Source of the DNA: Perna viridis
Lineage: Eukaryota
NCBI GenBank assembly: GCA_037379345.1
Contig: CM074516.1
Coordinates: 1,612,001-1,676,000, forward strand
Direction: 5' to 3'
Length of the DNA: 64,000 nucleotides
Shown: piece after piece, positions 609-63,580 of the stretch
Layout of the letters: every line of letters starts with the position of its first letter
Position numbering within the stretch: the stretch's first letter is position 1
Notes under the pieces: generated by a model
Database searches by the model: none
Told to the model about the DNA's origin: nothing
Seen by the model: the letters and a program-made list of their open reading frames with translations, nothing else
Program-made: the position numbers and the translations under genes

Positions 609-620
609 TATTTTTATATA

Positions 621-779: not shown

Positions 780-796
780 TATATATATATATATCA

Positions 797-21000: not shown

Positions 21001-24000
21001 GCCAAATAAACAGCAACAGAAACTGACAGAATGGCGTCTATGTGTTTATTTAAATTTACGAACAATCTAGAGGATATAGTAAGACCCGAGAAAGCCTAGT
21101 CGCATCATTGATGTGTTTTCATCTATGTTGATAACAAAAACGCTTTAAAGAACAGCGTCCCCTTCTTATGTATTTGGCTCCTCCATTTTATAGGAGCACC
21201 ACAGCATGGATTTTAACAACAACTACAAAAATAATTTCTACACGAAATCGGCAATAAAATTATTTGGGTCATGATGATTTTTTGGGTCGATCGGGATTGG
21301 GGAAACAAAAAATATTTTATTTTTGGCCAAATCCAATTTTATTTTCCATGTAGTAATTTGATACCTGAGTATCTAAATAATAACATGAAGTCATACTTGT
21401 TGTCTTGCTAGGCATAATCCCATTTGTACAGGTAGTTGATATCAGAGAGCAATCAAAATGGGATACAATGTATACCCCATCTATATAAAGCCAATCATTT
21501 AATCTGAAATCAATCCATCTATTGGGATCCAAGATTTTTTGTGACAAAACTTCTTTATCGTTCCACATATTGAAAAATGGCAAAGTCCTCCAAACAGAAA
21601 GTTGATATCCGACAGCACCAAAAATTTCTTTAAGATAAGATATGTTTATTGTACTATAAAGGCCTCCAGCCCACGGTACCAATTTACAATAAGTAATTAA
21701 TAATTTATGCCAACTACATCATTTGAACAACATTTAACACAACAAAAATATGCCCCATCTAAATGAAACCACACACCAAATTTGAAATGAATTTATCAAT
21801 TGGGAATGGAGATAAGTGTGATGAAATCTGGACATTTGGACAGAATTGTGGATGTTTTTTTTGCAGATTATTTTACCATTGCAATGCCATCTTTCAAGTT
21901 CTGCAATTGTATCATTTTCCTTCTCAATTGAGAGTCCTAGGTTCCAGACAAGCTCTTCCATAAGATCTAAGCTTTCTTTATATTTGGCCTTATCCCACTG
22001 AGTGAAGTCACAATGAGTCCAGGGGTTCCATATCTCTGAATGAACCTAAAATATATTGAGATAAAATCCATAAATGTTGACCCCAATGTAAATAATTTTT
22101 AAAGACAAATTTGTGAGGAAAGATTAATGGTAATCCATGTGCATAAAACTAATTTAGAAATCCAGTCATCAAAAACAAAGCCAAAGAGCAATAATCTTAC
22201 CTTGAAACCAGTCCAAGGTCAAATGCCCACATGCCGTTTACAACAAACTGTGTAACAACCTTAATATTTCAAAAGTCTTTCTTCTAAGATAAAAAGTAAC
22301 AGTTCAGACATAATCCAACATCTTTTGACCCAAAGTTTATCGTTCAAAGTAAAGTTTTAGCAACACTATAACTAGTATGTGACAATAGCCATATTTACAT
22401 ATTTTTTTTACAAATAATTTTTCCAACAGAGTTCAGAATTTCTTTATCCTCACAATTTAGATTCCAAAATAATTTATTATCATTAAAAAAGTTGCAAAAA
22501 TTTGGAACCCAGCAGTCCTTTTCACAAAAAATCTTAGGTGTAAAATTAGTTGTAAGTTATGACATCATAATAGATCAAAATATTGTGACATCATAACTTA
22601 CAACAGATTTTATACTTACGATTTTTTTGTGAAATTGACCACTCAGACTGGCCATAGTTTTTCTCTGTCATCTTATTTAACATACTAATACTGTGGAAGT
22701 ATTGTAGGCCAAATCACGAAATTCGGTTTCCAACAAAATGGAGAATCCCAAGGATGTGTATACTGAAACCTCAAAACCTGGAATTCAAAAATGCATGAAC
22801 TAGCGTTCTTCCCTTAACCACGAAAATTGGTATCCACAAATTAAAGTACTTTCACAAGAATATGTGGAACTCTTTTGTGCACCATTAGTGTACAAAATAC
22901 ATTTTTTTGTAAAAAAAGTAATACCGGTAGATATTTTGCCAAAAGGTGCACACAATGAGAAACCATGTTTGATAAGAAAATATGCCTTATCTTCCACATG
23001 ATAACCTGACCATTTTTAATAGATTCTCTATGAATCATGAGATTTATCTGTAATGCCTCATTATGGAAGAATCATGAATGGAGATTTATCTGTAATGCCT
23101 CATTATGGAAGAACCATGAATGGAGATTTTTCTGTATTGCCTCAATATAGAAGAATCATGAATGGAGATTTATCTGTAATGCCTCATCATGGAAGAACCA
23201 TGAATGGAGATTTATCTGTAATGCCTCATTATGGAAGAACCATGAATGGAGATTTATCTGTAATGCCTCATTATGGAAATCTCCTCAACTTTGTTATTTA
23301 TCTTTCATCATACTATTTTATTTTACTATTGTAAGATTTGGCCCCTTATTCCTCAATAAATACAACCCCCAAAATCAATCCCTGCCTTCCTTTGGGGCAT
23401 GGCACATTTGGTACAATTTCAAAGAGATCCTTTCACCTTCAGGAAATTGCTTGTTTTTGGCCCCTTATTTTTATCAGTACAACGTATGTCACACTACCTA
23501 AAATAAATGCCAGCAAACCATTGTCTGGTACTTCCTTCCTTGGCACTCAATGGTATAATCTCAAAGAGATTCATTCACTTGAAGATAAGTTATTATTTGG
23601 ACATGATGAATCATGAAAAAATTTGTTTGTGTGTTGGCCCTAATTCATAGACAGTTTAAGGCACAACCCCATAAAAATTAGAAAATAGTAGAATTTTTTA
23701 TTTTTTATTTTTATTTTTTGATAAAGGGAATAATTGTTACCTGGTTTTGATATTGTATGTAAGACAATTACATTTTTACATACCCTTTCTGCAAAATCTA
23801 TTGCACTTCCAGGACATATGCCAGCTTTGATAATGATGCAAAGCAAAGCTGATAAGTCACAGTTTTCATCTATTACTGAATGCAGTGCCATATTAGTCTG
23901 TAAAAAAAGTTTTGATAAGTCGGTTGAATCTTTAACTCGGTAGTCAAATTTAGCCTGCTGTTTTACTCCAAGACTTCTATTGTTATTGATGGCTTCATAA

Positions 24001-27000
24001 TTAAAGAATGTTGACAGATAGCTTTTCATCTGATGTGGATACACCTGTACATCAATTTTGTTTGTTGTTTTCAGATTTTGCCAGAGCTGGTCGAGCCTAG
24101 GGGCAACATATTTCCTTAATGCAGGGATTATAACTGTGTGTAAACCAATGCCTACAAGAAGCCATCTTTTGTTGTTGTCCGTTAAGTCACACAGATCACC
24201 TGTAAAAAGACCATAGTACATGTACATGTATTATTTCATTTTAAAATTCTAATACAGTCTGGTTTACTTCTGAAACAACAAGAGGCTCCCAGTAGCCTGA
24301 ATCGCTCACCTTGTAAAAGTTGGTCTTTCAAGGGAAATAATTTAACAAAACGCTGTCCAACAATTTTAACTGAAGAAGACTTTGGTAGGACTATCACAAG
24401 GATCAGTTCAACTATAGAAAGTTTCTATCTAATATAGTTTTCAACATATTGGCTGAAAAATGTAAAAAAAAAAACCCTGTCATTTTTCATCAAGGACAAT
24501 AACTCTTACAAGGAGTCACCTGACAACTTTGATCCCTGAAGACTTTTGAAGGCCTTATAATAAGGGTCATTTCACCTATAGTTATAATTTGGCTAAACCT
24601 AACAGTTTTGGAGATGCAAAAAACTACTGTCTAACCCCTATGTTCTATTTTTAGTAATGGCAGCCATGTTTTTTAACGGATAAAAATCCCAACATCAGTT
24701 CTAATGAACATTCATACCAAGCTTGGTTCCAATTGGTCAAGTAGTGTCAGAAGAGAAGATTTTTGAAAGAAATAATATTAAAAATTGCAAAAAAACATTG
24801 AAAAAAGAGCAATAACTCCAACATGGCTTAACAGATTAAAATGAAAATTTGACCACAGATAGATCTCATCACGCTGAACACTTTTATCAAGTCCGGATTT
24901 GGCTAAACTTAACGATTTTGGAGACATATGCAAAAAAACTACTGTCTGACCCCTATGTTCTATTTTTAGTAACGGCGGCCATGTTTTTCAAATGGATTAA
25001 AAATTCCCATATCAGTTCTATGCACAATACCCCAAGGAATATTCATACCAAGTGTGGTTCCAATTGGTTAATTAGTGTCAGAGGAGAAGAAAAATTGTCA
25101 ACAATGACAGACAACAAGTGATGGTTATAGCTCACATGGCCTTTGGCTAGGTGAGCTAAAAACCGAACTGGAGAATAAATACAGAGCCTGATATTGCTCA
25201 ACTGGCCAAAAATTGCCAAGATTTTTCTAGTGATACAGATTTTGAAATTTTGTGCATGAACCAATTTTTGTTTCTTCTATCACAATGAAAATGTCACAGA
25301 CCCAATACAAAATAAAAAGCTTTGTGGAGCGCAGCAAGATACCCTCACAGAGGTCATACCATGAACAGATGGGCAAATATGGACACAAAATTTAAGCTTG
25401 ATACAGCTCTGAATTTTGATTGTGATCAAACATTTGACTCAATTAATATTTTACCCAAAATGGAAGCAGTCAAAACGCTTAAATACCTAAGAGTTTTAAA
25501 CGTAAACATGAACAGATAAACAGACGAACAGACAAATTACTTTCTATAGATCCTAGAATTTTGTATCAGTAGGGTGTTAAAAAATCCAAAAGCCCGGATC
25601 AAAAGAAATAAATAATTCACAATGTCATGGCATTTGGTGGAGGTATATTTGAGTTAATGTTAAAAGAAGAAAAATTACACTACATTTGTTGTATAAAATG
25701 ATTCCCCCTTTTTAATGAATTAAGTACCGTAACTCATAAAAAAATCATAAAAATGATATTATCTTCCTGTTGTGTTCATTCATTATGTTAACATTGTTCA
25801 TAATTGTATATATGTTTATTTTGTACTACTATACTCCATGTGGAGCCTCTTAGTGAAATAAAAAAGTTTCAAAGTTTCAAAAAAGTTTTAAAGAAAAATC
25901 AGAAATTTATAAGAATTGTCATCAATCATAACAAACAACAATTCAATCAAGTTTTATGAAAATAGGTCCAACCACAACTGAGTTGTAGTCTAAAAATTGT
26001 AAAACTCACGCCATTTTTATAATGAAGTCCCATAACTCTAAATAACAAAATCACAAATTTAAAAAAATTTTAAAAATTGAAAGGGAAATTTCATGACAAA
26101 TATTTTATGCAAATTACTCATTGACCTATACTGTAATTTCAAACCTTTGAATATAAAACAGAAGAAATACATTCTTACACTCCTAATCTATTGAAGATCT
26201 TATATGAGAAATTCTTCTTTTTTTTCTCATTCCATTGCGCTCCACTCATCAGAAGACAGAATTTCTCACATTTGTGGAAAATTTTCTCAGATATAAAATA
26301 GAGACTGGTATAAGGACCTATTAGTCTTTGTCAGCCCAGTATAGACTATCTCTATATTAGAGACTCGTATAAGGACCTATTAGTCTTTGTCAGCCCAGTA
26401 AAGACTATCTCTATATCAGAGACTGGTATAAGGAACTATTAGTCTTTGTCAGCCCAGTAAAGACTATCTCTATATTAGAGACTCATATAAGGACCTATTA
26501 GTCTTTGTCAGCCCAGTAAAGACTATCTCTATATCAGAGACTGGTATAAGGAACTATTAGTCTTTGTCAACCCAGTAGAGACTATCTCTATATTTGTGTA
26601 TTAATATAGTGTTTGTATGGTTTTATCTTTATATAACATAAAATCTGCCTAAATGGTTAAACACTAAATCTTCCTCATACCTTTCAAACGTTTCTGGACT
26701 CTATCTTTTTGTTCGTCTGAAAAAAGAAATTGACAACATATTAATACTAGAAAAACAGAAACATCAAAAATAAAGAATAAGGGGACTTAAGATGGACCTG
26801 ACTGCATAAGGAATATTCCTTTCCATCCTATAAAACAGATCTCAGTATGAAATACATTTTCAGCTTAACATCAATGTAAATCAAATGTTTTTGCCATTTA
26901 TGATTAGAATTGGGGGGGGGGGCTATTTGCAATTATAACCTTATGAACATTTGTGTCATGATAGGCTCATCCCCCCCCCCACCCCACCCCAAAAAGAAGT

Positions 27001-30000
27001 ACTTACAAATATAAATTATATATCAAATGTTATGGCCAAGTTTACTCTTATAATTCAGGGATTTTGTACCATGTTAGACTTATTATGAATGAGATGTTTT
27101 AGTAGCAACACAGTGATTTTTGTTCTTATTATGGTACAGTTTAACTTGTGAAAATAAAAGCTTTACCCAGTGCAGCATGATATGACTGCAAACAGTTAAA
27201 CTCTATTCATTTCAGGCAGGTTCGGATACAATATCAGTTTTTGACACACTTAAACATGGAGCCTTACAAGTCATTTTGGACACAACAACTGATTTGGGTA
27301 CAATGTTGCACAACATTTAGTAATTCAATTTAAGTACAAATTTCTTTTTTCGGGTGCATTTATGGATCAATTTGTTCCTCATTATCTCAAAAACAGTAAA
27401 TGATCGAGTACATTTGCTAAGCATACTTCTTATGGCTCTTATACTTAGGTGGGGACTTTCATAAGGAACAAGAGGCTCCCAGAAACTTGAATCTCTCTCC
27501 TGATTAAATTGTTGTCTTTCAAGGGCATTAACTCTAACAAAGAGTTGTCCAACAATTTGGATTCAGAAAACTTTGGTAGGACTAATCATAAAGATCATTT
27601 CAGCAATTACAAGAATTTTTCTATCTATTATAGTTTTCAAGATATTGGCTGAAAAGTGCTAAAACACCATTTTTCGCCTTTCACTGGCAATAATTCTAAC
27701 AAGGATTTCTCTGACAGCTTTGATTCCACACAAACTTTTGTAGGCCTAATATTATAAGGATCATTTAGGCAATTGAAAGAACTTTGCTAAACCTAACGGT
27801 ACTAGAGATATCTGAGAAAAACTTCTGACTGCTACTTTTGTTCTATTTTTAGTAAGAGACCATGTTTTTCAATGGACCAATTTTCCCAACATCAGATCTC
27901 ATCATGGTGAACACTTTCAGTCCCTCTCAGAATTTGGTTAAACCTAACAGTTTTGGAGATATATGCAAAAAACTGCTGTCTGACCCCTACGTTCTATTTT
28001 TAGTAACAGTGGCCATGTTTTTTTTTCACGATCAAAAATCCAAATATTCATTTTATGCAGGATACCATAATAAACAAAAAACTAACTTTCATTGAAGTAT
28101 GTATAGTAATTTCTGAGAAGATTTTTGTAAGTACATGTAATAACATCAAAAACAGCAAAAAAAGTACAAAAAGGGCATTAACTCCAATAACTTTAATGGA
28201 CCCCAAATGATAGCAATAGCTCATATGGTCTACCGCCGGGTGGGCTAAAAACTGCTGTCTGACCCCTATGTTCTATTTTTAGTAACAGTGGCCCTGTTTG
28301 TTTACCGATCTCAAACCCAAATGGTCATTTTGTACAAGGATACCCTAAAAAACAGTAATACATGTTCCAACTTTCATAGAATTTCTGAAGAGAAGATTTT
28401 TGAAAGTAATTTTTTTGCAGGATACCCCAAGGAACATTAAATACCCAGTTTGGTTTCAATTGGTCAAGTAGTGTCAGAGGAGAAGATTTATTATAGAAAT
28501 AACATTAAAAATAGCAAAAAATCATTGAAAAAAGGCAGTAACTCCAACATGTTTCAACAGATTAAAACCAAAATTTGACCGCAGGTAGATCTCATCATGC
28601 TGAACACTTTTACCTAGTCAGAATTTAGCTTGAAAAAATTTAAGATGGCTGACATAGTGGTCACATAAGTATCAGCTCTCAGATTTTTTGGCAATTTGGA
28701 AATGTTTAAAAACAGGAATGATATTAAAATTTATATGAGGATGTGTATAATTTTTTTCTCTTTTATGTGATGCTTGTGGAATTGAAATATCAGATGGAAT
28801 AATAAAATCTGCACTAATTAATGATAAAATTTGGATGGACAGTGAGTAAAAATCAGAACTAGATCTTATTTTGCAAGTGCCTACAGGAATATTTACTTTA
28901 AAAGTACTACAGCTATTGTTCACAAGACTTACTTTAAGATGCCTTCAGGAAGTAGTAGTAGAAATTCATCCAATAATGAAAAAGACAAATCTGGCAAGAA
29001 ATCAGAAAAGAAAACTTTTCAGACCTTATTGGCAGTGTAAGGACAAAGAATCAGCTGACAAAAACCCTAAAGGAACTCATTAAGATATTTCTATGGACAG
29101 TAGTTCTGATCTGATAGTAGAATTCAGTAATTTTCAAAAGGACTTACAATCCATCAAGAATAGCCTGAAGGATGTAGTAAAAAAAACAGACCTTGAACAG
29201 TCCTTAGGCAAAATTGTAAAGAAAGGGGATTTAGAAACAGTTGTTACCTCTATTGTCACCAAATTGATCAATCAAGCCAAAAATGATAGTGATGGAAAGT
29301 TAAGAGAAAAGACAAACAAACAAACAAAAGCTATTGAGGAACTTACCGCTGAAAATGAAAAGCTGAGAGAGGCAATTGCTGAACAAAATAAAACTATTAG
29401 GGAACTTAAAATGGAAGTTGCTAGTAACAAAACTGCAGTAACAGATGCACTTCAGATAGCTAACTACAATCAGCAATATTGCAGGAAATTTAATATCAAA
29501 GTGATGAACTTTCCAGAAAGTCCAACAGAAAACACCAAGGACTTGTTTATCAATGAGACTCAAAATCACAGTGAAATCTGAAGATATCCAAGCTATCCAT
29601 AGAATACCTGGTCAAAACAAACAACACAGACCAATTCTTGTGAAACTCAGGAACTCTGAAGTAAAGTACAATATAATGAAAGAAAAAAAGAACCTCCCAT
29701 TGGAAAAGACATTCAACTTAGCTGATGATGTTACAAAGCACAATATGGATTTGATTTCCAAACTTAGAGATGACAAAGATGTGGACAGTGCTTGGTACTT
29801 TAATTGTGCAGTTTATGCAATGATTAAGTCATCAGGAAAACAAATGAAATTTGATATCTGTGATGACATTCGTAAGAAATTAAATACATATTATGGGTAA
29901 TTTGCTTACTAGTTTCCCTACTTCCTTTGGAAGTATTTATTGACATATATTATCATTTATTCAGTCAGGACATGGAACAAGTGTGTTGTTACTTGTGTGT

Positions 30001-33000
30001 AATAAAATACGTTAATTTATTTTAACTATATACTTATTTTGTTTGTTTGTTTACACATTCATTCTTCTTTTTGTATTTATTCATTCATTCATCATTTTGA
30101 TTATCAATACATGTAAGTGAAGGTTTGATGTGTTCATACTTGAACAGAGGGGTTCATTATTTTTTTTTTAAATTGCAGACACTGTGAGCAATGTTAATTA
30201 CTGATATTTTCACCTTGTTTTGGATTGCTGTTAGGCTTGATGAGCTGTAGCACAGATCCTAGGCCTCTGTTGTTACAGCTCCTCAAATCTATCAATCTCT
30301 TCAAGCTTACAGTATATGGGCATACAGTCAAATGTATGGATGAATGATACATTAATTTTGCATTTTATTTGTGATAATAACACATCCTTTCTAGGTGTAC
30401 ATTGCATGTAAAATAATATGATATGATGTTCATGCCAATCAGTATGCACAAAAAATTTGAATGTACAACATAATCAGTTGAATTTTGAATTTCAGAATTG
30501 ATAAAATATTATGATTTTTGATTAATCTCCCTCTTTACTAGAGGTTTTTGTACAAGCTATGGTTGTTCTATCCATAAGTAGTCACACACACAAGAAGGAT
30601 ACAAGTATATTAAATTAATATGATATCTTCTTGAGTACATTTCTTGCTACTTATTTTCCTATGTTGTTGACTACATAACACATATTGATTAATTTCCAAT
30701 TACTTGAGTACTCAGTTGCTCAACTCTTACAAGTTACAGCATATTTATGTACATGTTTTCTAAAAACAAATGAATTCATTCTCTTATTGAAATATTTGCC
30801 ATCAATCTGAACTAATTTTTAGAAACTTCTACAAACAAAATGTCCTATCTTGAGTGTGTGAGTTTAAGAGAATCTGTTTTTCTTAATTTTTTTGGATACT
30901 TTTTGTTAAATTCACTGTCTTGTGTAAAAGGTTATCAAATTTCATTTGTAGTAATGAGTAGTTGTGTAGAAAAATTATCAATGAATGTAAGAGGCCTACA
31001 ATCAAATATTAAGAAAAGAGTAGACATTTTTAATTGGGTAAAAAAAAATGCATCCATTATTTGTTTACAAGAAACCCATAGCACTGAGGTGGTAGAAAAG
31101 AAGTAGGAAGATGAGTGGGGTCATAAGTGCTATTTCAGTCATGGTGATAGTAAGGGTGCCGATGTATGTAATTTGTTCAAGCCAGGTCTTCAATATGACG
31201 TCCATAATTCAATCATTGATCAACATGGTAGATATATCATACTAGATATAACTACCTTTGAGCACAGATTTACTTTTGTATGTTTGTATGGTTATAATTT
31301 AGATAGACCTGACTTTTTTGATGAAGTTCTGTTTCATGCTGTTAAATTCAGCAATACAAGCTATATATTCCGTGGAGACTGGAATGTAATGCAGGACAGG
31401 TATGATGATACCTGTGATGTACTGCATGACAGGAACCCAAAAGCTAGAGACAAGATAGAGGAAATAAAAAGCTCCTTAGGAATGCTAGACCCATAGAGAA
31501 CATGTTATCCTGATGAAAAAAGGTTTACATGGCATCAGTCTAGTCCTTAAAAACAGAGCAGAATAGATTATTTTCTTGTTTCTGTGGATATTTTTTGTTT
31601 GCTAAAATCAGCAAAAATTGAGGCTGGATACAGAATTGATCATTCTGCAATCACTTTTTCATTCACAGCATCCTTTTCCTGCTGAGAGATAAAGATTATT
31701 GTCATCTTATCAAGCAATGCATCAGAGACTTGATTGATGAGTACTATGCTGGTGGTGACAAATCTGATCTATTACAAGTGGAGTAATCCTGTAGTGATCA
31801 ATTATTCTTTGAAGTATTAAAAATGAAGATCAGAAGTGAGACCATCAGTTATGGTATTAAAAATCAAAACAATTTAGTAGATTAGAGACAGAAATGGAGC
31901 AATTAGAAAAAGATGTAAACAAAAATTCTTCAGAAAACTTATCATTGTCTTTGAATAAGAAAAAACTTGAGTTAGAAATTCAAAGACAAAATCTTGTTGA
32001 AGGCATTGTTCTCCGTTCTCATGCAAATTGGCATGAGAGTGGAGAGAGATGCACAGAATATTTTTGTAAGTTAGAAAAAAGGGCATCTATGAACAAAATT
32101 ATGACTGAGACAATTAGTGATGATGGTATATGTGTGTCAGATCAAAAGAAAATATCTGAACTGACACAATTTTACCAAAAAATATTTAAATCTTCCCACA
32201 AACCCATAGAAAACTTAGATTTTTTTAAGCATGTCAATCAGATGAATGAAGAACAAAAAAATTCATGTGAAGGTAATCTGACATTTGATGAGTGTAGTAA
32301 AGTGTTGAGCAGGATGCAAAATGGAAAAAGTCCTGGCTCTGATGACCGAATTTCTCACATTTGTGGAAAATTTTCTCAGATATAAAATAGAGACTGGTAT
32401 AAGGACCTATTAGTCTTTGTCAGCCCAGTATAGACTATCTCTATATTAGAGACTCGTATAAGGACCTATTAGTCTTTGTCAGCCCAGTAAACACAATCTC
32501 TATAATAGAAACTGGTATAAGGACGTATTAGTCTTTGTCAGCCCAGTAAAGACTATCTCTATAATAGAGACTCGTATAAGGACCTATTAGTCTTTGTCAG
32601 CCCAGTAAAGACTATCTCTATATCAGAGACTGGTATAAGGAACTATTAGTCTTTGTCAACCCAGTAGAGACTATCTCTATATTTGTGTATTAATATAGTG
32701 TTTGTATGGTTTTATCTTTATATAACATAAAATCTGCCTAAATGGTTAAACACTAAATCTTCCTCATACCTTTCAAACGTTTCTGGACTCTATCTTTTTG
32801 TTCGTCTGAAAAAAGAAATTGACAACATATTAATACTAGAAAAACAGGAACATCAAAAATAAAGAATAAGGGGACTTAAGATGGACCTGACTGCATAAGG
32901 AATATTCCTTTCCATCCTATAAAACAGATCTCAGTATGAAATACATTTTCAGCCTAACAACAATGTTAAGCAAACGTTTTTGCCATTTATGATTAGAATT

Positions 33001-36000
33001 AAGGGGGGGGGGGGCTATTTGCAATTATAACCTTATTAAAATTTGTGTAATGTTTGGCTCATCCCCCCCCCCCAAAAAGAAGTACTTACAAATATAAATT
33101 ATATATCAAATGTTATGGCCAAGTTTACCCTTATAATACAGGGATTTTGTACCATGTTAAGACTTATTATGAATGAGATGTTTTAGTAGCAACACAGTGA
33201 TTTTTGTTCTTATTATGGTACAGTTTAACTTGTGAAAATAAAAGCTTTACCCAGTGCAGCATGATATGACTGCAAACAGTTAAACTCTATTCATTTCAGG
33301 CAGGTTCGGATACAATATCAGTTTTTGACACACTTAAACATGGAGCCTTACAAGTCATTTTGGACACAACAACTGATTTGGGTACAATGTTGCACAACAT
33401 TTAGTAATTCAATTTAAGTACAAATTTCTTTTTTCGGGTGCATTTATGGATCAATTTGTTCCTCATTATCTCAAAAACAGTAAATGATCGAGTACATTTG
33501 CTAAGCATACTTCTTATGGCTCTTATACTTAGGTGGGGACTTTCATAAGGAACAAGAGGCTCCCAGAAACTTGAATCTCTCTCCTGATTAAATTGTTGTC
33601 TTTCAAGGGCATTAACTCTAACAAAGAGTTGTCCAACAATTTGGATTCAGAAAACTTCGGTAGGACTAATCATAAAGATCATTTCAGCAATTACAAGATT
33701 TTTTCTATCTATTATAGTTTTCAAGATATTGGCTGAAAAGTGCTAAAACATCATTTTTCGCCTTTCACTGGCAATAATTCTAACAAGGATTTCTCTGACA
33801 GCTTTGATTCCACACAAACTTTTGTAGGCCTAATATTATAAGGATCATTTAGGCAATTGAAAGAACTTTGCTAAACCTAACGGTACTAGAGATATCAGAA
33901 AAACTTCTGACTGCTACTTTTGTTCTATTTTTAGTAAGAGACCATGTTTTTCAACGGACCAATTTTCCCAACATCAGATCTCATCATGGTGAACACTTTC
34001 AGCCCCTCCCAGAATTTGGTTAAACCTAACAGTTTTGGAGATATATGCAAAAAACTGCTGTCTGACCCCTACGTTCTATTTTTAGTAACAGTGGCCATGT
34101 TTTTTTTTCACGATCAAAAATCCAAATATTCATTTTATGCAGGATACCATAATAAACAAAAAACTAACTTTCATTGAAGTATGTATAGTAATTTCTGAGA
34201 AGATTTTTGTAAGTACATGTAATAACATCAAAAACAGCAAAAAAAGTACAAAAAGGGCATTAACTCCAATAACTTTAATGGATGCCAAATGATAGCAATA
34301 GCTCATATGGTCTACGGCCGGGTGGGCTAAAAACTGCTGTCTGACCCCTATGTTCTATTTTTAGTAACAGTGGCCCTGTTTGTTTACCGATCTCAAACCC
34401 AAACGGTCATTTTGTACAAGGATACCCTAAAAAAACAGTAATACATGTTCCAACTTTCATAGAATTTCTGAAGAGAAGATTTTTGAAAGTAATTTTTTTG
34501 CAGGATACCCCAAGGAACATAAAATACCCAGTTTGGTTTCAATTGGTCAAGTAGTGTCAGAGGAGAAGATTTATTATAGAAATAACATTAAAAATAGCAA
34601 AAAATCACTGAAAAAAGGCAGTAACTCCAACATGTTTCAACAGATTAAAACCAAAATTTGACCGCAGGTAGATCTCATCATGCTGAACACTTTTACCTAG
34701 TCAGAATTTAGCTTGAAAAAATTTAAGATGGCTGACATAGTGGTCACATAAGTATCAGCTCTCAGACTTTTTGGCAATTTGGAAATGTTTAAAAACAGGA
34801 ATGATATTAAAATTTATATGAGGATGTGTATAAATTTTTTCTCTTTTATGTGATGCTTGTGGAATTGAAATATCAGTTGGAATAATAAAATCTGCACTAA
34901 TTAATGATAAAATTTGGATGGACAGTGAGTAAAAATCAGAACTAGATCTTATTTTGCAAGTGCCTACAGGAATATTTACTTTAAAAGTACTACAGCTATT
35001 GTTCACAAGACTTACTTTAAGATGCCTTCAGGAAGTAGTAGTAGAAATTCATCCAATAATGAAAAAGACAAATCTGGCAAGAGATCAGAAAAGAAAACTT
35101 TTCAGACCTTATTGGCAGTGTAAGGACAAAGAATCAGCTGACAAAAACCCTAAAGGAACTCATTAAGATATTTCTATGGACAGTAGTTCTGATCTGATAG
35201 TAGAATTCAGTAATTTTCAAAAGGACTTACAATCCATCAAGAATAGCCTGAAGGATGTAGTAAAAAAAACAGACCTTGAACAGTCCTTAGGCAAAATTGT
35301 AAAGAAAGGGGATTTAGAAACAGTTGTTACCTCTATTGTCACCGAATTGATCAATCAAGCCAAAAATGATAGTGATGGAAAGTTAAGAGAAAAGACAAAC
35401 AAACAAACAAAAGCTATTGAGGAACTTACCGCTGAAAATGAAAAGCTGAGAGAGGCAATTGCTGAACAAAATAAAACTATTAGGGAACTTAAAATGGAAG
35501 TTGCTAGTAACAAAACTGCAGTAACAGATGCACTTCAGATAGCTAACTACAATCAGCAATATTGCAGGAAATTTAATATCAAAGTGATGAACTTTCCAGA
35601 AAGTCCAACAGAAAACACCAAGGACTTGTTTATCAATGAGACTCAAAATCACAGTGAAATCTGAAGATATCCAAGCTATCCATAGAATACCTGGTCAAAA
35701 CAAACAACACAGACCAATTCTTGTGAAACTCAGGAACTCTGAAGTAAAGTACAACATAATGAAAGAAAAAAAGAACCTCCCATTGGAAAAGACATTCAAC
35801 TTAGCTGATGATGTTACAAAGCACAATATGGATTTGATTTCCAAACTTAGAGATGACAAAGATGTGGACAGTGCTTGGTACTTTAATTGTGCAGTTTATG
35901 CAATGATTAAGTCATCAGGAAAACAAATGAAATTTGATATCTGTGATGACATTCGTAAGAAATTAAATACATATTATGGGTAATTTGCTTACTAGTTTCC

Positions 36001-39000
36001 CTACTTCCTTTGGAAGTATTTATTGACATATATTATCATTTATTCAGTCAGGACATGGAACAAGTGTGTTGTTACTTGTGTGTAACAAAATACGTTAATT
36101 TATTTTAAATATATACTTATTTTGTTTGTTTGTTTACACATTCATTCTTCTTTTTGTATTTATTCATTCATTCATCATTTTGATTATCAATACATGTAAG
36201 TGAAGGTTTGATGTGTTCATACTTGAACAGAGGGGTTCATTATTTTTTTTTTTAATTGCAGACACTGTGAGCAATGTTAATTACTGATATTTTCACCTTG
36301 TTTTGGATTGCTGTTAGGCTTGATGAGCTGTAGCACAGATCCTAGGCCTCTGTTGTTACAGCTCCTCAAATCTATCAATCTCTTCAAGCTTACAGTATAT
36401 GGGCATACAGTCAAATGTACGGATGAATGATACATTAATTTTGCATTTTATTTGTGATAATAACACATCCTTTCTAGGTGTACATTGCATGTAAAATAAT
36501 ATGATATGATGTTCATGCCAATCAGTATGCACAAAAAATTTGAATGTACAACATAATCAGTTGAATTTTGAATTTCAGAATTGATAAAATATTATGATTT
36601 TTGATTAATCTCCCTCTTTACTAGAGGTTTTTGTACAAGCTATGGTTGTTCTATCCATAAGTAGTCACACACACAAGAAGGATACAAGTATATTAAATTA
36701 ATATGATATCTTCTTGAGTACATTTCTTGCTACTTATTTTCCTATGTTGTTGACTACATAACACATATTGATTAATTTCCAATTACTTGAGTACTCAGTT
36801 GCTCAACTCTTACAAGTTACAGCATATTTATGTACATGTTTTCTAAAAACAAATGAATTCATTCTCTTATTGAAATATTTGCCATCAATCTGAACTAATT
36901 TTTAGAAACTTCTACAAACAAAATGTCCTATCTTGAGTGTGTGAGTTTAAGAGAATCTGTTTTTCTTAATTTTTTTGGATACTTTTTGTTAAATTCACTG
37001 TCTTGTGTAAAAGGTTATCAAATTTCATTTGTAGTAATGAGTAGTTGTGTAGAAAAATTATCAATGAATGTAAGAGGCCTACAATCAAATATTAAGAAAA
37101 GAGTAGACATTTTTAATTGGGTAAAAAAAAATGCATCCATTATTTGTTTACAAGAAACCCATAGCACTGAGGTGGTAGAAAAGAAGTAGGAAGATGAGTG
37201 GGGTCATAAGTGCTATTTCAGTCATGGTGATAGTAAGGGTGCCGATGTATGTAATTTGTTCAAGCCAGGTCTTCAATATGACGTCCATAATTCAATCATT
37301 GATCAACATGGTAGATATATCATACTAGATATAACTACCTTTGAGCACAGATTTACTTTTGTATGTTTGTATGGTTATAATTTAGATAGACCTGACTTTT
37401 TTGATGAAGTTCTGTTTCATGCTGTTAAATTCAGCAATACAAGCTATATATTCCGTGGAGACTGGAATGTAATGCAGGACAGGTATGATGATACCTGTGA
37501 TGTACTGCATGACAGGAACCCAAAAGCTAGAGACAAGATAGAGGAAATAAAAAGCTCCTTAGGAATGCTAGACCCATAGAGAACATGTTATCCTGATGAA
37601 AAAAGGTTTACATGGCATCAGTCTAGTCCTTAAAAACAGAGCAGAATAGATTATTTTCTTGTTTCTGTGGATATTTTTTGTTTGCTAAAATCAGCAAAAA
37701 TTGAGGCTGGATACAGAATTGATCATTCTGCAATCACTTTTTCATTCACAGCATCCTTTTCCTGCTGAGAGATAAAGATTATTGTCATCTTATCAAGCAA
37801 TGCATCAGAGACTTGATTGATGAGTACTATGCTGGTGGTGACAAATCTGATCTATTACAAGTGGAGTAATCCTGTAGTGATCAATTATTCTTTGAAGTAT
37901 TAAAAATGAAGATCAGAAGTGAGACCATCAGTTATGGTATTAAAAATCAAAACAATTTAGTAGATTAGAGACAGAAATGGAGCAATTAGAAAAAGATGTA
38001 AACAAAAATTATTCAGAAAACTTATCATTGTCTTTGAATAAGAAAAAACTTGAGTTAGAAATTCAAAGACAAAATCTTGTTGAAGGCATTGTTCTCCGTT
38101 CTCATGCAAATTGGCATGAGAGTGGAGAGAGATGCACAGAATATTTTTGTAAGTTAGAAAAAAGGGCATCTATGAACAAAATTATGACTGAGACAATTAG
38201 TGATGATGGTATATGTGTGTCAGATCAAAAGAAAATATCTGAACTGACACAATTTTACCAAAAAATATTTAAATCTTCCCACAAACCCATAGAAAACTTA
38301 GATTTTTTTAAGCATGTCAATCAGATGAATGAAGAACAAAAAAATTCATGTGAAGGTAATCTGACATTTGATGAGTGTAGTAAAGTGTTGAGCAGGATGC
38401 AAAATGGAAAAAGTCCTGGCTCTGATGACCGAATTTCTCACATTTGTGGAAAATTTTCTCAGATATAAAATAGAGACTGGTATAAGGACCTATTAGTCTT
38501 TGTCAGCCCAGTATAGACTATCTCTATATTAGAGACTCGTATAAGGACCTATTAGTCTTTGTCAGCCCAGTAAACACAATCTCTATAATAGAAACTGGTA
38601 TAAGGACGTATTAGTCTTTGTCAGCCCAGTAAAGACTATCTCTATAATAGAGACTCGTATAAGGACCTATTAGTCTTTGTCAGCCCAGTAAAGACTATCT
38701 CTATATCAGAGACTGGTATAAGGAACTATTAGTCTTTGTCAACCCAGTAGAGACTATCTCTATATTTGTGTATTAATATAGTGTTTGTATGGTTTTATCT
38801 TTATATAACATAAAATCTGCCTAAATGGTTAAACACTAAATCTTCCTCATACCTTTCAAACGTTTCTGGACTCTATCTTTTTGTTCGTCTGAAAAAAGAA
38901 ATTGACAACATATTAATACTAGAAAAACAGGAACATCAAAAATAAAGAATAAGGGGACTTAAGATGGACCTGACTGCATAAGGAATATTCCTTTCCATCC

Positions 39001-42000
39001 TATAAAACAGATCTCAGTATGAAATACATTTTCAGCCTAACAACAATGTTAAGCAAACGTTTTTGCCATTTATGATTAGAATTAAGGGGGGGGGCTATTT
39101 GCAATTATAACCTTATGAACATTTGTGTCATGATAGGCTCATCCCCCCCCCCCCAAAAAGAAGTACTTACAAATATAAATTATATATCAAATGTTATGGC
39201 CAAGTTTACCCTTATAATACAGGGATTTTGTACCATGTTAAGACTTATTATGAATGAGATGTTTTAGTAGCAACACAGTGATTTTTGTTCTTATTATGGT
39301 ACAGTTTAACTTGTGAAAATAAAAGCTTTACCCAGTGCAGCATGATATGACTGCAAACAGTTAAACTCTATTCATTTCAGGCAGGTTCGGATACAATATC
39401 AGTTTTTGACACACTTAAACATGGAGCCTTACAAGTCATTTTGGACACAACAACTGATTTGGGTACAATGTTGCACAACATTTAGTAATTCAATTTAAGT
39501 ACAAATTTCTTTTTTCGGGTGCATTTATGGATCAATTTGTTCCTCATTATCTCAAAAACAGTAAATGATCGAGTACATTTGCTAAGCATACTTCTTATGG
39601 CTCTTATACTTAGGTGGGGACTTTCATAAGGAACAAGAGGCTCCCAGAAACTTGAATCTCTCTCCTGATTAAATTGTTGTCTTTCAAGGGCATTAACTCT
39701 AACAAAGAGTTGTCCAACAATTTGGATTCAGAAAACTTCGGTAGGACTAATCATAAAGATCATTTCAGCAATTACAAGATTTTTTCTATCTATTATAGTT
39801 TTCAAGATATTGGCTGAAAAGTGCTAAAACATCATTTTTCGCCTTTCACTGGCAATAATTCTAACAAGGATTTCTCTGACAGCTTTGATTCCACACAAAC
39901 TTTTGTAGGCCTAATATTATAAGGATCATTTAGGCAATTGAAAGAACTTTGCTAAACCTAACGGTACTAGAGATATCAGAAAAACTTCTGACTGCTACTT
40001 TTGTTCTATTTTTAGTAAGAGACCATGTTTTTCAACGGACCAATTTTCCCAACATCAGATCTCATCATGGTGAACACTTTCAGCCCCTCCCAGAATTTGG
40101 TTAAACCTAACAGTTTTGGAGATATATGCAAAAAACTGCTGTCTGACCCCTACGTTCTATTTTTAGTAACAGTGGCCATGTTTTTTTTTCACGATCAAAA
40201 ATCCAAATATTCATTTTATGCAGGATACCATAATAAACAAAAAACTAACTTTCATTGAAGTATGTATAGTAATTTCTGAGAAGATTTTTGTAAGTACATG
40301 TAATAACATCAAAAACAGCAAAAAAAGTACAAAAAGGGCATTAACTCCAATAACTTTAATGGATGCCAAATGATAGCAATAGCTCATATGGTCTACGGCC
40401 GGGTGGGCTAAAAACTGCTGTCTGACCCCTATGTTCTATTTTTAGTAACAGTGGCCCTGTTTGTTTACCGATCTCAAACCCAAACGGTCATTTTGTACAA
40501 GGATACCCTAAAAAAACAGTAATACATGTTCCAACTTTCATAGAATTTCTGAAGAGAAGATTTTTGAAAGTAATTTTTTTGCAGGATACCCCAAGGAACA
40601 TAAAATACCCAGTTTGGTTTCAATTGGTCAAGTAGTGTCAGAGGAGAAGATTTATTATAGAAATAACATTAAAAATAGCAAAAAATCACTGAAAAAAGGC
40701 AGTAACTCCAACATGTTTCAACAGATTAAAACCAAAATTTGACCGCAGGTAGATCTCATCATGCTGAACACTTTTACCTAGTCAGAATTTAGCTTGAAAA
40801 AATTTAAGATGGCTGACATAGTGGTCACATAAGTATCAGCTCTCAGACTTTTTGGCAATTTGGAAATGTTTAAAAACAGGAATGATATTAAAATTTATAT
40901 GAGGATGTGTATAATTTTTTTCTCTTTTATGTGATGCTTGTGGAATTGAAATATCAGTTGGAATAATAAAATCTGCACTAATTAATGATAAAATCTGGAT
41001 GGACAGTGAGTAAAAATCAGAACTAGATCTTATTTTGCAAGTGCCTACAGGAATATTTACTTTAAAAGTACTACAGCTATTGTTCACAAGACTTACTTTA
41101 AGATGCCTTCAGGAAGTAGTAGTAGAAATTCATCCAATAATGAAAAAGACAAATCTGGCAAGAGATCAGAAAAGAAAACTTTTCAGACCTTATTGGCAGT
41201 GTAAGGACAAAGAATCAGCTGACAAAAACCCTAAAGGAACTCATTAAGATATTTCTATGGACAGTAGTTCTGATCTGATAGTAGAATTCAGTAATTTTCA
41301 AAAGGACTTACAATCCATCAAGAATAGCCTGAAGGATGTAGTAAAAAAAACAGACCTTGAACAGTCCTTAGGCAAAATTGTAAAGAAAGGGGATTTAGAA
41401 ACAGTTGTTACCTCTATTGTCACCGAATTGATCAATCAAGCCAAAAATGATAGTGATGGAAAGTTAAGAGAAAAGACAAACAAACAAACAAAAGCTATTG
41501 AGGAACTTACCGCTGAAAATGAAAAGCTGAGAGAGGCAATTGCTGAACAAAATAAAACTATTAGGGAACTTAAAATGGAAGTTGCTAGTAACAAAACTGC
41601 AGTAACAGATGCACTTCAGATAGCTAACTACAATCAGCAATATTGCAGGAAATTTAATATCAAAGTGATGAACTTTCCAGAAAGTCCAACAGAAAACACC
41701 AAGGACTTGTTTATCAATGAGACTCAAAATCACAGTGAAATCTGAAGATATCCAAGCTATCCATAGAATACCTGGTCAAAACAAACAACACAGACCAATT
41801 CTTGTGAAACTCAGGAACTCTGAAGTAAAGTACAACATAATGAAAGAAAAAAAGAACCTCCCATTGGAAAAGACATTCAACTTAGCTGATGATGTTACAA
41901 AGCACAATATGGATTTGATTTCCAAACTTAGAGATGACAAAGATGTGGACAGTGCTTGGTACTTTAATTGTGCAGTTTATGCAATGATTAAGTCATCAGG

Positions 42001-45000
42001 AAAACAAATGAAATTTGATATCTGTGATGACATTCGTAAGAAATTAAATACATATTATGGGTAATTTGCTTACTAGTTTCCCTACTTCCTTTGGAAGTAT
42101 TTATTGACATATATTATCATTTATTCAGTCAGGACATGGAACAAGTGTGTTGTTACTTGTGTGTAACAAAATATGTTAATTTATTTTAAATATATACTTA
42201 TTTTGTTTGTTTGTTTACACATTCATTCTTCTTTTTGTATTTATTCATTCATTCATCATTTTGATTATCAATACATGTAAGTGAAGGTTTGATGTGTTCA
42301 TACTTGAACAGAGGGGTTCATTATTTTTTTTTTAATTGCAGAAACTGTGAGCAATGTTAATTACTGATATTTTCACCTTGTTTTGGATTGCTGTTAGGCT
42401 TGATGAGCTGTAGCACAGATCCTAGGCCTCTGTTGTTACAGCTCCTCAAATCTATCAATCTTTTCAAGCTTACATTATATGGGCATACAGTCAAATGTAT
42501 GGATGAATGATACATTAATTTTGCATTTTATTTGTGATAATAACACATCCTTTCTAGGTGTACATTGCATGTAAAATAATATGATATGATGTTCATGCCA
42601 ATCAGTATGCACAAAAAATTTGAATGTACAACATAATCAGTTGAATTTTGAATTTCAGAATTGATAAAATATTATGATTTTTGATTAATCTCCCTTTTTA
42701 CTAGAGGTTTTTGTACAAGCTATGGTTGTTCTATCCATAAGTAGTCACACACACAAGAAGGATACAAGTATATTAAATTAATATGATATCTTCTTGAGTA
42801 CATTTCTTGCTACTTATTTTCCTATGTTGTTGACTACATAACACATATTGATTAATTTCCAATTACTTGAGTACTCAGTTGCTCAACTCTTACAAGTTAC
42901 AGCATATTTATGTACATGTTTTCTAAAAACAAACGAATTCATTCTCTTATTGAAATATTTGCCATCAATCTGAACTAATTTTTAGAAACTTCTGCAAACA
43001 AAATGTCCTATCTTGAGTGTGTGAGTTTAAGAGAATCTGTTTTTCTTAATTTTTTTGGATACATTTTGTTAAATTCACTGTCTTGTGTAAAAGGTTATCA
43101 AATTTCATTTGTAGTAATGAGTAGTTGTGTAGAAAAATTATCAATGAATGTAAGAGGCCTACAATCAAATATTAAGAAAAGAGTAGACATTTTTAATTGG
43201 GTAAAAAAAAATGCATCCATTATTTGTTTACAAGAAACCCATAGCACTGAGGTGGTAGAAAAGAAGTGGGAAGATGAGTGGGGTCATAAGTGCTATTTCA
43301 GTCATGGTGATAGTAAGGGTGCCGATGTATGTAATTTGTTCAAGCCAGGTCTTCAATATGACGTCCATAATTCAATCATTGATCAACATGGTAGATATAT
43401 CATACTAGATATAACTACCTTTGAGCACAGATTTACTTTTGTATGTTTGTATGGTTATAATTTAGATAGACCTGACTTTTTCGATGAAGTTCTGTTTCAT
43501 GCTGTTAAATTCAGCAATACAAGCTATATATTCCGTGGAGACTGGAATGTAATGCAGGACAGGTATGATGATACCTGTGATGTACTGCATGACAGGAACC
43601 CAAAAGCTAGAGACAAGATAGAGGAAATAAAAAGCTCCTTAGGAATGCTAGACCCATGGAGAACATGTTATCCTGATGAAAAAAGGTTTACATGGCATCA
43701 ATCTAGTCCTTAAAAACAGAGCAGAATAGATTATTTTCTTGTTTCTGTGGATATTTTTTGTTTGCTAAAATCAGCAAAAATTGAGGCTGGATACAGAATT
43801 GATCATTCTGCAATCACTTTTTCATTCACAGCATCCTTTTCCTGCTGAGAGATAAAGATTATTGTCATCTTATCAAGCAATGCATCAGAGACTTGATTGA
43901 TGAGTACTATGCTGGTGGTGACAAATCTGATCTATTACAAGTGGAGTTATCCTGTAGTGATCAATTATTCTTTGAAGTATTAAAAATGAAGATCAGAAGT
44001 GAGACCATCAGTTATGGTATTAAAAATCAAAACAATTTAGTAGATTAGAGACAGAAATGGAGCAATTAGAAAAAGATGTAAACAAAAATTCTTCAGAAAA
44101 CTTATCATTGTCTTTGAATAAGAAAAAACTTGAGTTAGAAATTCAAAGACAAAATCTTGTTGAAGGCATCGTTCTCCGTTCTCATGCAAATTGGCATGAG
44201 AGTGGAGAGAGATGCACAGAATATTTTTGTAAGTTAGAAAAAAGGGCATTTATCAACAAAATTATGACTGAGACAATTAGTGATGATGGTATATGTGTGT
44301 CAGATCAAAAGAAAATATCTGAACTGACACAATTTTACCAAAAAATATTTAAATCTTCCCACAAACCCATAGAAAACTTAGATTTTTTTAAGCATGTCAA
44401 TCAGATGAATGAAGAACAAAAAAATTCATGTGAAGGTAATCTGACATTTGATGAGTGTAGTAAAGTGTTGAGCAGGATGCAAAATGGAAAAAGTCCTGGC
44501 TCTGACGACCGAATTTCTCACATTTGTGGAAAATTTTCTCAGATATAAAATAGAGACTGGTATAAGGACCTATTAGTCTTTGTCAGCCCAGTATAGACTA
44601 TCTCTATATTAGAGACTTGTATAAGGACCTATTAGTCTTTGACAGCCCAGTAAAGACTATCTCTATATCAGAGACTGGTATAAGGACCTATTAGTATTCT
44701 ATTGAAATATTACAAGCACAAATCGCAAACTTTAAAAGCCAAATCATTTAAAAATCAAGTACACCAACCAGCACATGATAAATGTACAAGTAATAATGTG
44801 CTAGTAAGTTATTTAGAAAATGAAAATGAAGTTTTAAGGGAACAGATGGATGAGTTGTTGAAAAGTAAACATGTTCAATTTTTTAAAGATGGAAAATATG
44901 TTGACTGTGTACGTGAGGTATATGCCACACTTTTATCCATGAACGTTGGAGTGAAGAATGTAGAAACAATTGTTAAAACGGTGTTAGATAAAATGGTTGG

Positions 45001-61729: not shown

Positions 61730-62775
61730 AAAGGACAATAACTCTTGCAAAGTGCCAACTTCATGTACAATCTATACAATTTCGGGAACCAACTCCTACA
61801 TCAGTTCACAAATCGTTTTGAAAATTTTAGCAAAGATACATCCCATGATGCTGAACAATATTACCCTTCAGACCCCTATGTTCTATATTTAGTAATGGTG
61901 GCCATGTTTTTCACAGATAAAAAATCCCAATAGTCATTTTGTGTAGGATACCCTAAGGAACAAATATGCCAACTCATATTGAATGGTTTTAGAGAAGATT
62001 TTCAAAGTTGTACATGCGAAAAACGCAAAAAAATTAAATTGTTTCAGGGGTCGCAACTCCTACATCAGTCGAAAAATCATTTGAAAAATTTCAACATAGG
62101 TCCGTCTCATGACGCTGACGTTGTCTTAATATTAAGTAATTGGCAAAATATTATCCCCTTTCAGAATTTTGCCAAAGACAACAGTGTTTGAGTTATTTGC
62201 AAAAAATGCCTTTTGATCCCTAAGTTCCATTTTTAGTAAAACTCAACCATATCTATTTACAGATTAAAAATCACAACAGTCATTTTTTGCCAAAGGTAAA
62301 AGTTTTTGAGTTATTTGCAAAAAACTTCCTTCAGACCCCTATGTTCTATTTCAAGTAAAAGCTACAATGTTCTTTCAAAGATCGAAAATCCCAATGGTCA
62401 TTTTAAGTAGGACACCCTAAGAAACAATTATGCAAACTTTCATTGAATTCTGTAGAATAATTTTGAGAAGAAGATGTTCAAAGTTGTAAATAAGAAAAAT
62501 GCAAGAAAGCTGTTTCAGGGACTGTTTCTCCTACATAAGTTGACAAATCGTTTTTAAAATTTCAGCATAGGCCTACCTCATAATCCTGAAAAATATTACC
62601 CCACCAGAAATTTGTTAAAGATAACGGTTTTTGAGTTCTTTGCAAAAAAAAACAGCTTCAGGTCCCTATGTTCTATTTTTAGTAGCGGCGGCCATCTTTT
62701 TTCAAGATACAAAAATCCCAACATTCATTTTGTGTAGAATACCCTTACTAACAAATATGCAGACTTTCACTGATA
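61730..62775. mobile_element. Degenerate Helentron/DINE-like repeat cores
   Basis: The gacccctatgttctat...ggccatg...gataccctaag core recurs at ~61870, 62334 and 62661. Confidence 0.55.
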
Positions 62776-62840: not shown

Positions 62841-63555
62841 CTAAAGTAAATCACCATATAATTAAATATCAAATAGATCCATTTTTTTCACTAAAGTTAT
62901 AACATGGACATCAATCAATGCATGTGTTTGGCTATGGGTCTGATAGTCTGGGGTAAAAATAATATCAAAGTCAAGTGATACTTATCTGAAGATCAACCAA
63001 ATTTTATGTATTTATTTTCCACACATATACTTAAGGTCAACCCAATTTGATCAAGTAGAATTCTCATCAACTTGACCGACAGGACATGAAATTACTAATG
63101 GTCTTTTGTGGCCCCTCATTCCCAACCTTCTTCATCATTTCTTTAGTGGTATGACGCCTTGTACAAGATAACAAAGAGATCTATTTAATTTAATTCAAGT
63201 GATTGTCTTGAGATCAGGAAGATGCTTATTTTTGGATCCTACAAACTTCAAATGACAAGTCCCCAAAATTAACCCAGCTGTCCTTGTTTGATTTAACACT
63301 GGGAGGCGCAATTTTACAGACCTTTCTTTTAATACATTTTAAACTCAAATACTGTCTATATGCTCAGTGTCTACAGACAAAGATAATAGGAACATAATAC
63401 CTTTATAAAATGTACAACTGGAATATTTGCGTTTGTATAAAAGGAAGTGTGACATTTTGCCCCATCAAAGTCTGAAAATGAAAGCAAAAACAAATGAAAA
63501 ATATTAAGAATTTTGATGAATCAAAGTTATTTATTTAAAAGAAATGTATACTAAC

Positions 63556-63580
63556 CTACTTTGATTTCCAATTGACGAAT
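63556..63580 (-). CDS. Candidate microexon (25 nt with gttagt donor, or 21 nt with gtaggt donor)
   Basis: Strong acceptor tttattttttattttcag|ATTCGTC. Either donor can give a phase-1 end; it may be 5' UTR rather than coding. Confidence 0.35.

Follow-up and report, generated by a model that had tools for sequence, protein, structure and literature searches.

The 64,000-nt window analysed here (Perna viridis, assembly GCA_037379345.1, contig CM074516.1, positions 1,612,001 to 1,676,000 of the forward strand; all coordinates below are those of the window) carries, within an intron of a minus-strand gene, a tandem array of three head-to-tail units of 6089, 6083 and 6080 bp (U1, U2 and U3), each containing a 36-nt candidate microexon. 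The host is a bivalve-type gene that combines HEPN-like, coiled-coil, nSTAND3 and ankyrin segments with an N-terminal domain tentatively labelled TRADD-N-like. On balance, we favour the reading that the array is a real and young intragenic gain in copy number, in which the small exon is a frame-neutral passenger. Such a gain would be tolerated because the exon is symmetric and any number of copies keeps the frame; transcripts with one to three copies, the most likely outcome, would lengthen a flexible linker by 12 to 36 charged residues and change its function little.

Anatomy and formation of the array

The three units differ pairwise by 0.43-0.94% in substitutions, and comparison of the window with itself by BLAST aligned 12,376 columns at 99.2%, far above chance. 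About 87% of U1 is repeat-derived: a long interspersed nuclear element (LINE) contributes 3.7 kb, dispersed repeats make up 1.3 kb, and a minisatellite has five copies of a 59-bp monomer. The initial annotation, which had proposed a 6.08-kb intronic triplication of units that were otherwise transposon debris, was thus right on the triplication and about right on the composition. The span that it gave, 26259 to 44695, does hold three units, but its end falls inside a partial fourth unit that contains no microexon; likewise, the exon is identical in all three units as it had claimed, but the units themselves are not equivalent, since U2 is a chimera of the other two. Adjacent, highly similar segments that each carry a copy of an exon are what characterizes a tandem exon duplication.

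The chimeric nature of U2 is apparent from the distribution of the differences between the units (65 substitutions and 6 indel events over 6094 alignment columns). All 39 substitutions private to U1 are located at or before column 3917, while 16 of the 18 private to U3 are located beyond it (Mann-Whitney P 4e-9; Fisher P 3e-12, the cut having been chosen afterwards). U2 differs from U3 at 8/3905 positions to the left and 18/2174 to the right, and from U1 at 45/3904 and 2/2174, respectively. Judged from these counts, U2 consists of the left part of U3 and the right part of U1, the product expected of unequal crossing-over. An internal unit that recombines its neighbours, with a single shared junction throughout, is the signature of non-allelic homologous recombination; a loop in the assembly gives the same pattern. 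Because U2 departs so little from its donors (8 and 2 positions), the step that formed it appears several times younger than the split between the two sequence types A and B, represented by U1 and U3. The array would thus have been recently expanded by unequal exchange, in line with the initial view of a duplication caught in progress.

The order in which the array was assembled can be proposed from its repeats. One LINE, flanked by an 8-bp repeat at 28630 and 52229, spans 28631-52229; its 5' half is present in every unit and its 3' half only once, so the LINE predates the array. The three junctions are identical, joining the same LINE position to the same unit start via a short imperfect microhomology, and therefore the join happened once. 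Downstream of U3 follow 188 bp of the fourth unit, a transposase-like element, an 82-bp remnant (49531-49612) identical to the end of U3 (44427-44508), and the LINE 3' half, which continues directly after the remnant; on the simplest reading, these 82 bp are the surviving right end of unit 4. The fourth unit has none of the six changes common to U2 and U3 in the stretch that it covers. hAT elements are characterized by a DDE transposase with a CxxH motif and by paired terminal inverted repeats with an 8-bp target duplication. The transposase-like element, tentatively hAT-like by its candidate motifs and with a right end that may fit the terminal consensus of hAT elements, carries the motifs TDG, DRH, CxLH and ERDFA in a frame interrupted by one frameshift and one stop (open reading frames 44684-45358, 45310-47154 and 47158-47406). 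It gave no match in Pfam or PDB, and its structure model, with a predicted local distance difference test (pLDDT) of 38.7, was unusable. Its left end is gone, and its right end has no partner within the window. The possibility that the unit start represents the left end of this transposon and the 82-bp repeat a giant target duplication was rejected, as the right end is without a partner and a lost fourth unit explains both remnants.

We propose the following sequence of events. Long ago, the linker exon m0 of the host gene (see below), or its equivalent in a paralogue, would have been copied, along with some 150 nt of flanking sequence, to a place ahead of the HEPN-like exon, after which a LINE inserted nearby. 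The first duplicate would then have arisen when microhomology mediated a single join of the LINE to a site at a distance of 6.08 kb. A DNA transposon would have entered the last unit, followed by deletion of most of that unit and of the left end of the transposon, and unequal crossing-over between two diverged units would have generated the chimeric middle unit; the relative order of these last two steps is not firm.

The array is probably real, as judged from its sequence. The window contains no N, and minisatellite arrays of 1.6 kb and 3 kb are resolved in it, pointing to long reads. Substitutions outnumber indel events about tenfold and 12/36 transitions fall in CpG context, compared to approximately 17% by chance (P 0.013), which argues that the two sequence types are real DNA. 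Among the eight substitutions private to U2, three, at columns 2498, 4084 and 5675, are isolated. Two observations weigh in the other direction: the remaining five of these eight cluster between two homopolymer tracts, and the 0.9% gap between types A and B is smaller than the heterozygosity of 1.73% given for Mytilus galloprovincialis (PMC7653742), so that the types could be alleles. Allelic types would fit inter-allelic crossing-over, and also the mixing of haplotypes during assembly. An artefact with fewer units, in which the assembler passed once too often through a two-unit repeat and so created U2, or joined two alleles via the 188-bp repeat around a single unit, would account for the chimera, which an assembler would also be expected to build from a two-copy repeat, for a divergence within the bivalve allelic range, and for the partial fourth unit, which forms a direct repeat of the unit start. 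A one-unit genome would, however, require a switch of haplotype as well as two mis-joins inside no more than 107 bp of identity, and the private substitutions of U2 and the gap-free resolution of the minisatellites also speak against an artefact, which we regard as improbable. It is very probable that the genome has at least two units and likely that it has all three; that only the third unit is false is unlikely, and a genome with one unit only is very improbable.

Several further features distinguish the units. The differences between U1 and U2/U3 are often clustered, with 19/39 located in columns 1-850 out of 3917 (P 2e-4, for an interval selected post hoc); this may reflect error-prone repair close to the junction or turnover of the minisatellite. 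In 10 of the 12 CpG-type transitions, the decayed base is confined to type A sequence (U1 and the right part of U2), and two Trp codons of the LINE endonuclease are intact in U3 and are stops in U1 and U2. Copies of a single dispersed repeat, which itself has internal repeats, were found in the same orientation at 24277-25162, 27467-28630, 52231-52832 and 61790-62773, the LINE being inside one of them.

Origin of the candidate microexon and structure of the host gene

At all three sites the 36-nt segment is identical, on the minus strand and in phase 1-1, preceded by ttttcag and followed by gtatga, and it encodes the peptide originally given. This identity is uninformative, as only about 0.5 differences would be expected in ~57 nt at 0.9% divergence. 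The segment is flanked by the GSI exon and by HEPN-like exon 1 at the positions first annotated (Table 1), and whether 0, 1, 2 or 3 copies are included, a single frame stays open between the GSI exon and the stop, with a length of 989, 1001, 1013 or 1025 aa, respectively, so that the frame is maintained as had been predicted.

Comparison of the window with itself matched 26650-26731 to 12471-12551 (75.6%, E 9e-8), a region that contains the 36-nt phase 1-1 linker exon m0 of the same gene. The two exons are identical at 24/36 nt, their upstream flanks at 12/15 and their downstream flanks at 32/50. The local score is 109, whereas 2000 shuffles reach 49 at most and none of 1320 tiles taken outside the m0 region exceeds 38. 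Being a paralogue of a 36-nt exon, the tripled segment is, by its sequence, exon-derived and an old diverged copy of the gene's own exon m0; homology of the duplicated sequence to an exon is a second feature of tandem exon duplication that is found here. The linker motif of m0 (IP.HI[RK]-type) precedes the NTPase in 11/244 fetched proteins, the pattern having been written after m0 was seen, which makes the motif-match part circular. The tripled peptide scores lower than m0 against these proteins and above shuffles (P 0.004), and has lost the motif Pro and His. Remnants of coiled-coil or NTPase exons beside the tripled exon, which would show an origin by gene fusion, were not detected above background, and therefore a local copy and a fusion of paralogues are indistinguishable. 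Both m0 and the tripled exon adjoin a minisatellite.

The host gene is described by a ten-exon minus-strand model consisting of the GSI exon, the three microexons, two HEPN-like exons, two predicted coiled-coil exons, m0 and the last exon, with all introns GT-AG and no stop or frameshift over about 1000 codons. The last exon encodes an nSTAND3 NTPase (PF20720, E 8.6e-21, 74.7 bits versus a cut-off of 27.2) and ankyrin repeats (Ank_2, E 7.3e-25, 87.8 bits versus a cut-off of 27.3), both above the curated Pfam cut-offs, and together with the HEPN-like domain this architecture agrees with the immune-like gene that had been suspected. The NTPase region has 81 relatives (best identity 59%) and HEPN-like exon 1 has 248 at E<=0.001; besides bivalve proteins, this exon also matches one sea-anemone protein at 38% identity. 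The named relatives are mostly Mytilus and oyster proteins, with a best identity of 50% for the HEPN-like exon, and the host gene's own protein is not among the relatives listed for either region.

The HEPN-like exon matched no Pfam HEPN family, PF18738 included; sub-threshold matches to HEPN_Swt1 (E 0.004-0.026) were obtained for 4 of the 12 relatives scanned. Relatives have the motif R-N-x-W-x-H, which in the host gene reads W-N-P-W-T-H: Arg occupies the first position in 80/84 xNxWxH matches among the 244 fetched proteins, and the Trp codon TGG of the host gene (region 22029-22031) is one base away from an Arg codon. The Rx4-6H motif, treated as a putative RNase site in PMC9646362, is thus missing from the host gene. 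As Trp replaces the catalytic Arg, the domain is probably HEPN-derived and inactive as an RNase, and this change may represent an inactivated effector domain or early decay of the gene.

The domain encoded by the GSI exon is likely TRADD-N-like, as far as its model can indicate. A single-sequence model (pLDDT only 48.5) has the order strand-helix-strand-strand-helix-helix-strand and places Gly42-Ser43 between predicted strands 39-41 and 44-48 (strands 2 and 3); in TRADD-N domains, the uS motif forms a turn between strands 2 and 3 of a fold resembling the RNA recognition motif (RRM), as described in PMC8195603. A fold search with this low-confidence model returned generic ferredoxin-like matches (best Z 6.1, root-mean-square deviation (rmsd) 3.4, 80 aligned) and a SEA domain (Z 5.7, rmsd 2.8, 81 aligned). 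No TRADD-N entry was among the 50 fold matches listed, and the family may still apply. The exon had no Pfam match, none to the TRADD-N superfamily profiles PF20694, PF09034 and PF13820 in particular, and none of 40 candidates in a homologue search reached E<=10, which is weak evidence as longer proteins only were covered. A Mytilus coruscus relative (P0069) combines an N-terminus that looks TRADD-like_N with the same HEPN-like domain; this N-terminus gave no significant alignment with the GSI exon (E 41). Upstream of the GSI exon, no convincing phase 0-1 exon was found that joins it to upstream candidates, and the 5' end of the model is not closed. Two short candidate upstream exons are located on the minus strand at 63556-63580 (25 nt, phase 0-1) and 63401-63471 (71 nt, phase 1-0).

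Table 1. Position of the array, of the elements associated with it and of the exons of the host gene in the window.
Feature	Position	Strand	Description
U1	26259-32347	+	6089 bp, sequence type A; 59-bp minisatellite, microexon, dispersed repeats, LINE 5' half
U1, 59-bp minisatellite	26299-26594		5 copies
U1, dispersed repeats	27143-28630		
U1, LINE 5' half	28631-32347		
U2	32348-38430	+	6083 bp; chimera that resembles U3 in alignment columns 1-3920 and U1 in the remainder
U3	38431-44510	+	6080 bp, sequence type B
Partial fourth unit	44511-44698	+	188 bp; junction plus 2.5 minisatellite monomers, no microexon
Left breakpoint	26249-26258	+	short imperfect microhomology with LINE sequence at the right breakpoint
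DNA-transposon-like element	44699-49530	+	5'-truncated; insertion point within the LINE, 82 bp short of the array breakpoint; one end left
LINE 3' half (reverse transcriptase)	49531-52229	+	single copy, degenerate; RVT_1 E 1.5e-13
Candidate microexon, U1	26681-26716	-	36 nt, phase 1-1; diverged paralogue of exon 12502-12537
Candidate microexon, U2	32770-32805	-	36 nt
Candidate microexon, U3	38853-38888	-	36 nt; first in transcript order
GSI exon	54541-54834	-	294 nt, phase 1-1; probable TRADD-N-like (RRM/ferredoxin-like fold); from splice sites, frame and low-confidence model
HEPN-like exon 1	23784-24199	-	416 nt, phase 1-0; 44-50% identity to 9 bivalve proteins
HEPN-like exon 2	21877-22045	-	169 nt, phase 0-1; from tblastn; W-N-P-W-T-H
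Predicted coiled-coil exon 1	16679-16869	-	191 nt, phase 1-0; from splice sites and frame, label from composition and position
Predicted coiled-coil exon 2	13268-13316	-	49 nt, phase 0-1
m0, linker exon	12502-12537	-	36 nt, phase 1-1; likely source of the tripled exon
Last exon	4261-6077	-	nSTAND3 NTPase and ankyrin repeats

Splicing of the microexon and function of the linker

Splicing of the candidate microexon is plausible from its sequence, and we judge it probable that at least one copy is included in the mRNA. A home-made matrix places its acceptor among the best 0.8% of the 3302 AGs on the minus strand and its donor among the best 0.9% of the 3328 GTs; both score higher than the sites of m0. 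Several results weigh against an exon in use. The same matrix prefers a segment that is antisense to the LINE and present in each unit (12.5 versus 9.9), a control strand yields two comparable short candidates while the gene strand yields three others besides m0, and neutral decay alone keeps the AG, the GT and the frame in 13-36% of simulations. In addition, only phase and position connect the GSI exon to the HEPN-like exon, and among 156 fetched relatives there is none that aligns to the former (the best E being 0.048).

These results bear on a rival reading, in which the array is real and the 36-nt segment is a dead, skipped pseudo-exon, a decaying copy of m0, the GSI exon possibly being left over from another gene upstream, or the entire gene being in decay. 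The divergence from m0 is similar in the exon, the flank and the splice windows (20/32, 32/50 and 19/24 identical), as for neutral drift, which is also what the favoured reading of a neutral passenger expects; the splice windows are no better kept than the flanks (P 0.10 at a 65% background), and a comparison with m0 detected no selection on the tripled copy. The survival of the exon in neutral simulations, the loss of the family Pro and His, the replacement of the catalytic Arg, the lack of relatives for the GSI exon and the unclosed 5' end would all be accommodated by such decay. In contrast, the splice scores of the microexon exceed those of m0 and of two exons that are supported by homology or required by the frame, the ten-exon model is uninterrupted, and a tblastn search with the 156 relatives, covering 24.2 to 54.5 kb, uncovered no other exon that could lead into the HEPN-like domain. 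We consider this pseudo-exon reading unlikely. Each unit also contains a 261-nt open phase 1-1 segment, antisense to LINE open reading frame 1, with strong splice scores (29347-29607, 35430-35690 and 41511-41771, minus strand), which is a candidate for a tripled cryptic exon.

The initial annotation had further proposed that the peptide forms a charged helical spacer that tunes the distance between the N-terminal and HEPN domains, an idea that the data do not support. As an adaptive device, such a spacer would have its length set by splicing or by copy number and would alter the coupling of the two domains. This agrees with the neutrality of 0-3 copies for the frame, with the charge of the peptide (5 basic and 3 acidic of 12 residues), and with the variation of linker modules in relatives: the Mytilus edulis proteins CAG2233483.1 and CAG2251719.1 each have two copies of a 17-aa unit ahead of the HEPN-like domain, and a 20-aa unit of Crassostrea gigas LOC105333531 occurs four times in RefSeq isoform X4 versus twice in X9. 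The hydrophobic residues of the peptide, however, are at positions 7 and 11 only and recur every 12 residues, with no heptad; 12 residues correspond to 3.3 helical turns, and therefore no coiled-coil stripe is formed. The adjoining Ser/Thr-rich and Gly residues would uncouple a spacer, and the domain that follows is probably inactive as an RNase. Repeats make up 87% of each unit and account for both breakpoints, and no signal of selection was detected. Tandem linker repeats were found in only 7/244 fetched proteins, two of them short-period coiled-coil repeats, and show tolerance of linker length in the family, not tuning. An adaptive spacer is consequently regarded as improbable, and a passenger exon in a linker of tolerated length as the preferred explanation.

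Comparison with known systems

Tandemly duplicated exons are found in about 10% of animal genes, as cited in PMC9013439, and on the features that can be tested in the sequence the locus qualifies as one of them. Similar to the cases described there, an exon was copied within its own gene by tandem duplication over more than 1 kb. Unlike the mutually exclusive choice stressed in that paper, additive inclusion seems more likely here, the copies being identical, 6 kb apart and symmetric, and the locus has two layers, an old dispersed copy and a young array. Lineage-specific expansions of bivalve immune genes join TRADD-N to STAND, HEPN and ankyrin domains (PMC8195603). The domain set of the host gene is the same as in these expansions, for which shuffling of architectures between close species and variation of copy number between haplotypes are described (PMC8195603; PMC9646362). 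It differs from them in its HEPN-like domain, which has neither a PF18738 match nor the Arg of RxxxxH, and in its tentative TRADD-N assignment. As to exon structure, the word "exon" does not occur in the main text of PMC8195603.

Among individual proteins, Mytilus CAG2233483.1 (P0020) and XP_071172953.1 (P0027) have HEPN-like, coiled-coil, IP.HI[RK]-type linker, nSTAND3 and ankyrin segments in the same order as the host gene; the doubled linker of the former is known from its protein sequence alone. The Mytilus relatives are only 44-59% identical, and most of them begin about 40-50 aa before the HEPN-like domain and have no GSI domain. A closer immune analogy than tandem exon duplication in general may be offered by the ROCO candidate immune receptors of brown algae, in which tandem small exons are shuffled and alternatively spliced (PMC11378527); the exons there encode ligand-binding leucine-rich repeats under diversifying selection, in contrast to a linker without a selection signal here. 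A literature search that largely lacked subscription journals listed nothing about the locus or about linker microexons of this receptor family; the supplementary architecture tables of PMC8195603 may list this domain order.

The locus is a well-preserved example of a known process, probably real and probably neutral. The class is not new, tandem exon duplication being common and bivalve immune genes being known as structurally unstable; its value is that of a worked example, in which a single window shows the junction, the succession of repeat insertions, the recombinant nature of the middle unit and where the exon came from. A broader interpretation, which we think improbable, is that bivalve STAND immune receptors reuse a 36-nt linker exon of phase 1-1, copies of which are placed before other domains and then amplified by ordinary copy-number change. 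Steps of 12 residues between alleles and isoforms would then alter the engagement of the N-terminal adaptor with the remainder of the receptor, and diversity would arise from spacer length and not from ligand-binding repeats. If helical, each step would amount to about 18 angstroms and 120 degrees, and if linker-length alleles alter receptor behaviour, this would constitute a little-studied route to diversity in invertebrate immune receptors.

Other duplications and repeats were noted in the relatives and in the window. Mytilus galloprovincialis OPL32697.1 (P0013) has two HEPN-like stretches with a coiled-coil and linker between them, a layout that suggests duplication of the whole phase 1-1 HEPN-coiled-coil block in this relative. 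The introns of the host gene are rich in minisatellites (6933-11910, 11957-12424, 12544-13109, 19186-20814 and 23039-23278), with arrays of 26-bp (about 118 copies, 8672-11732), 41-bp, 97-bp, 34-bp (48 copies) and 42-bp monomers. Palindromic elements resembling miniature inverted-repeat transposable elements, with 79% identity to their own reverse complement, are located at 618-1038 and 22520-22634.

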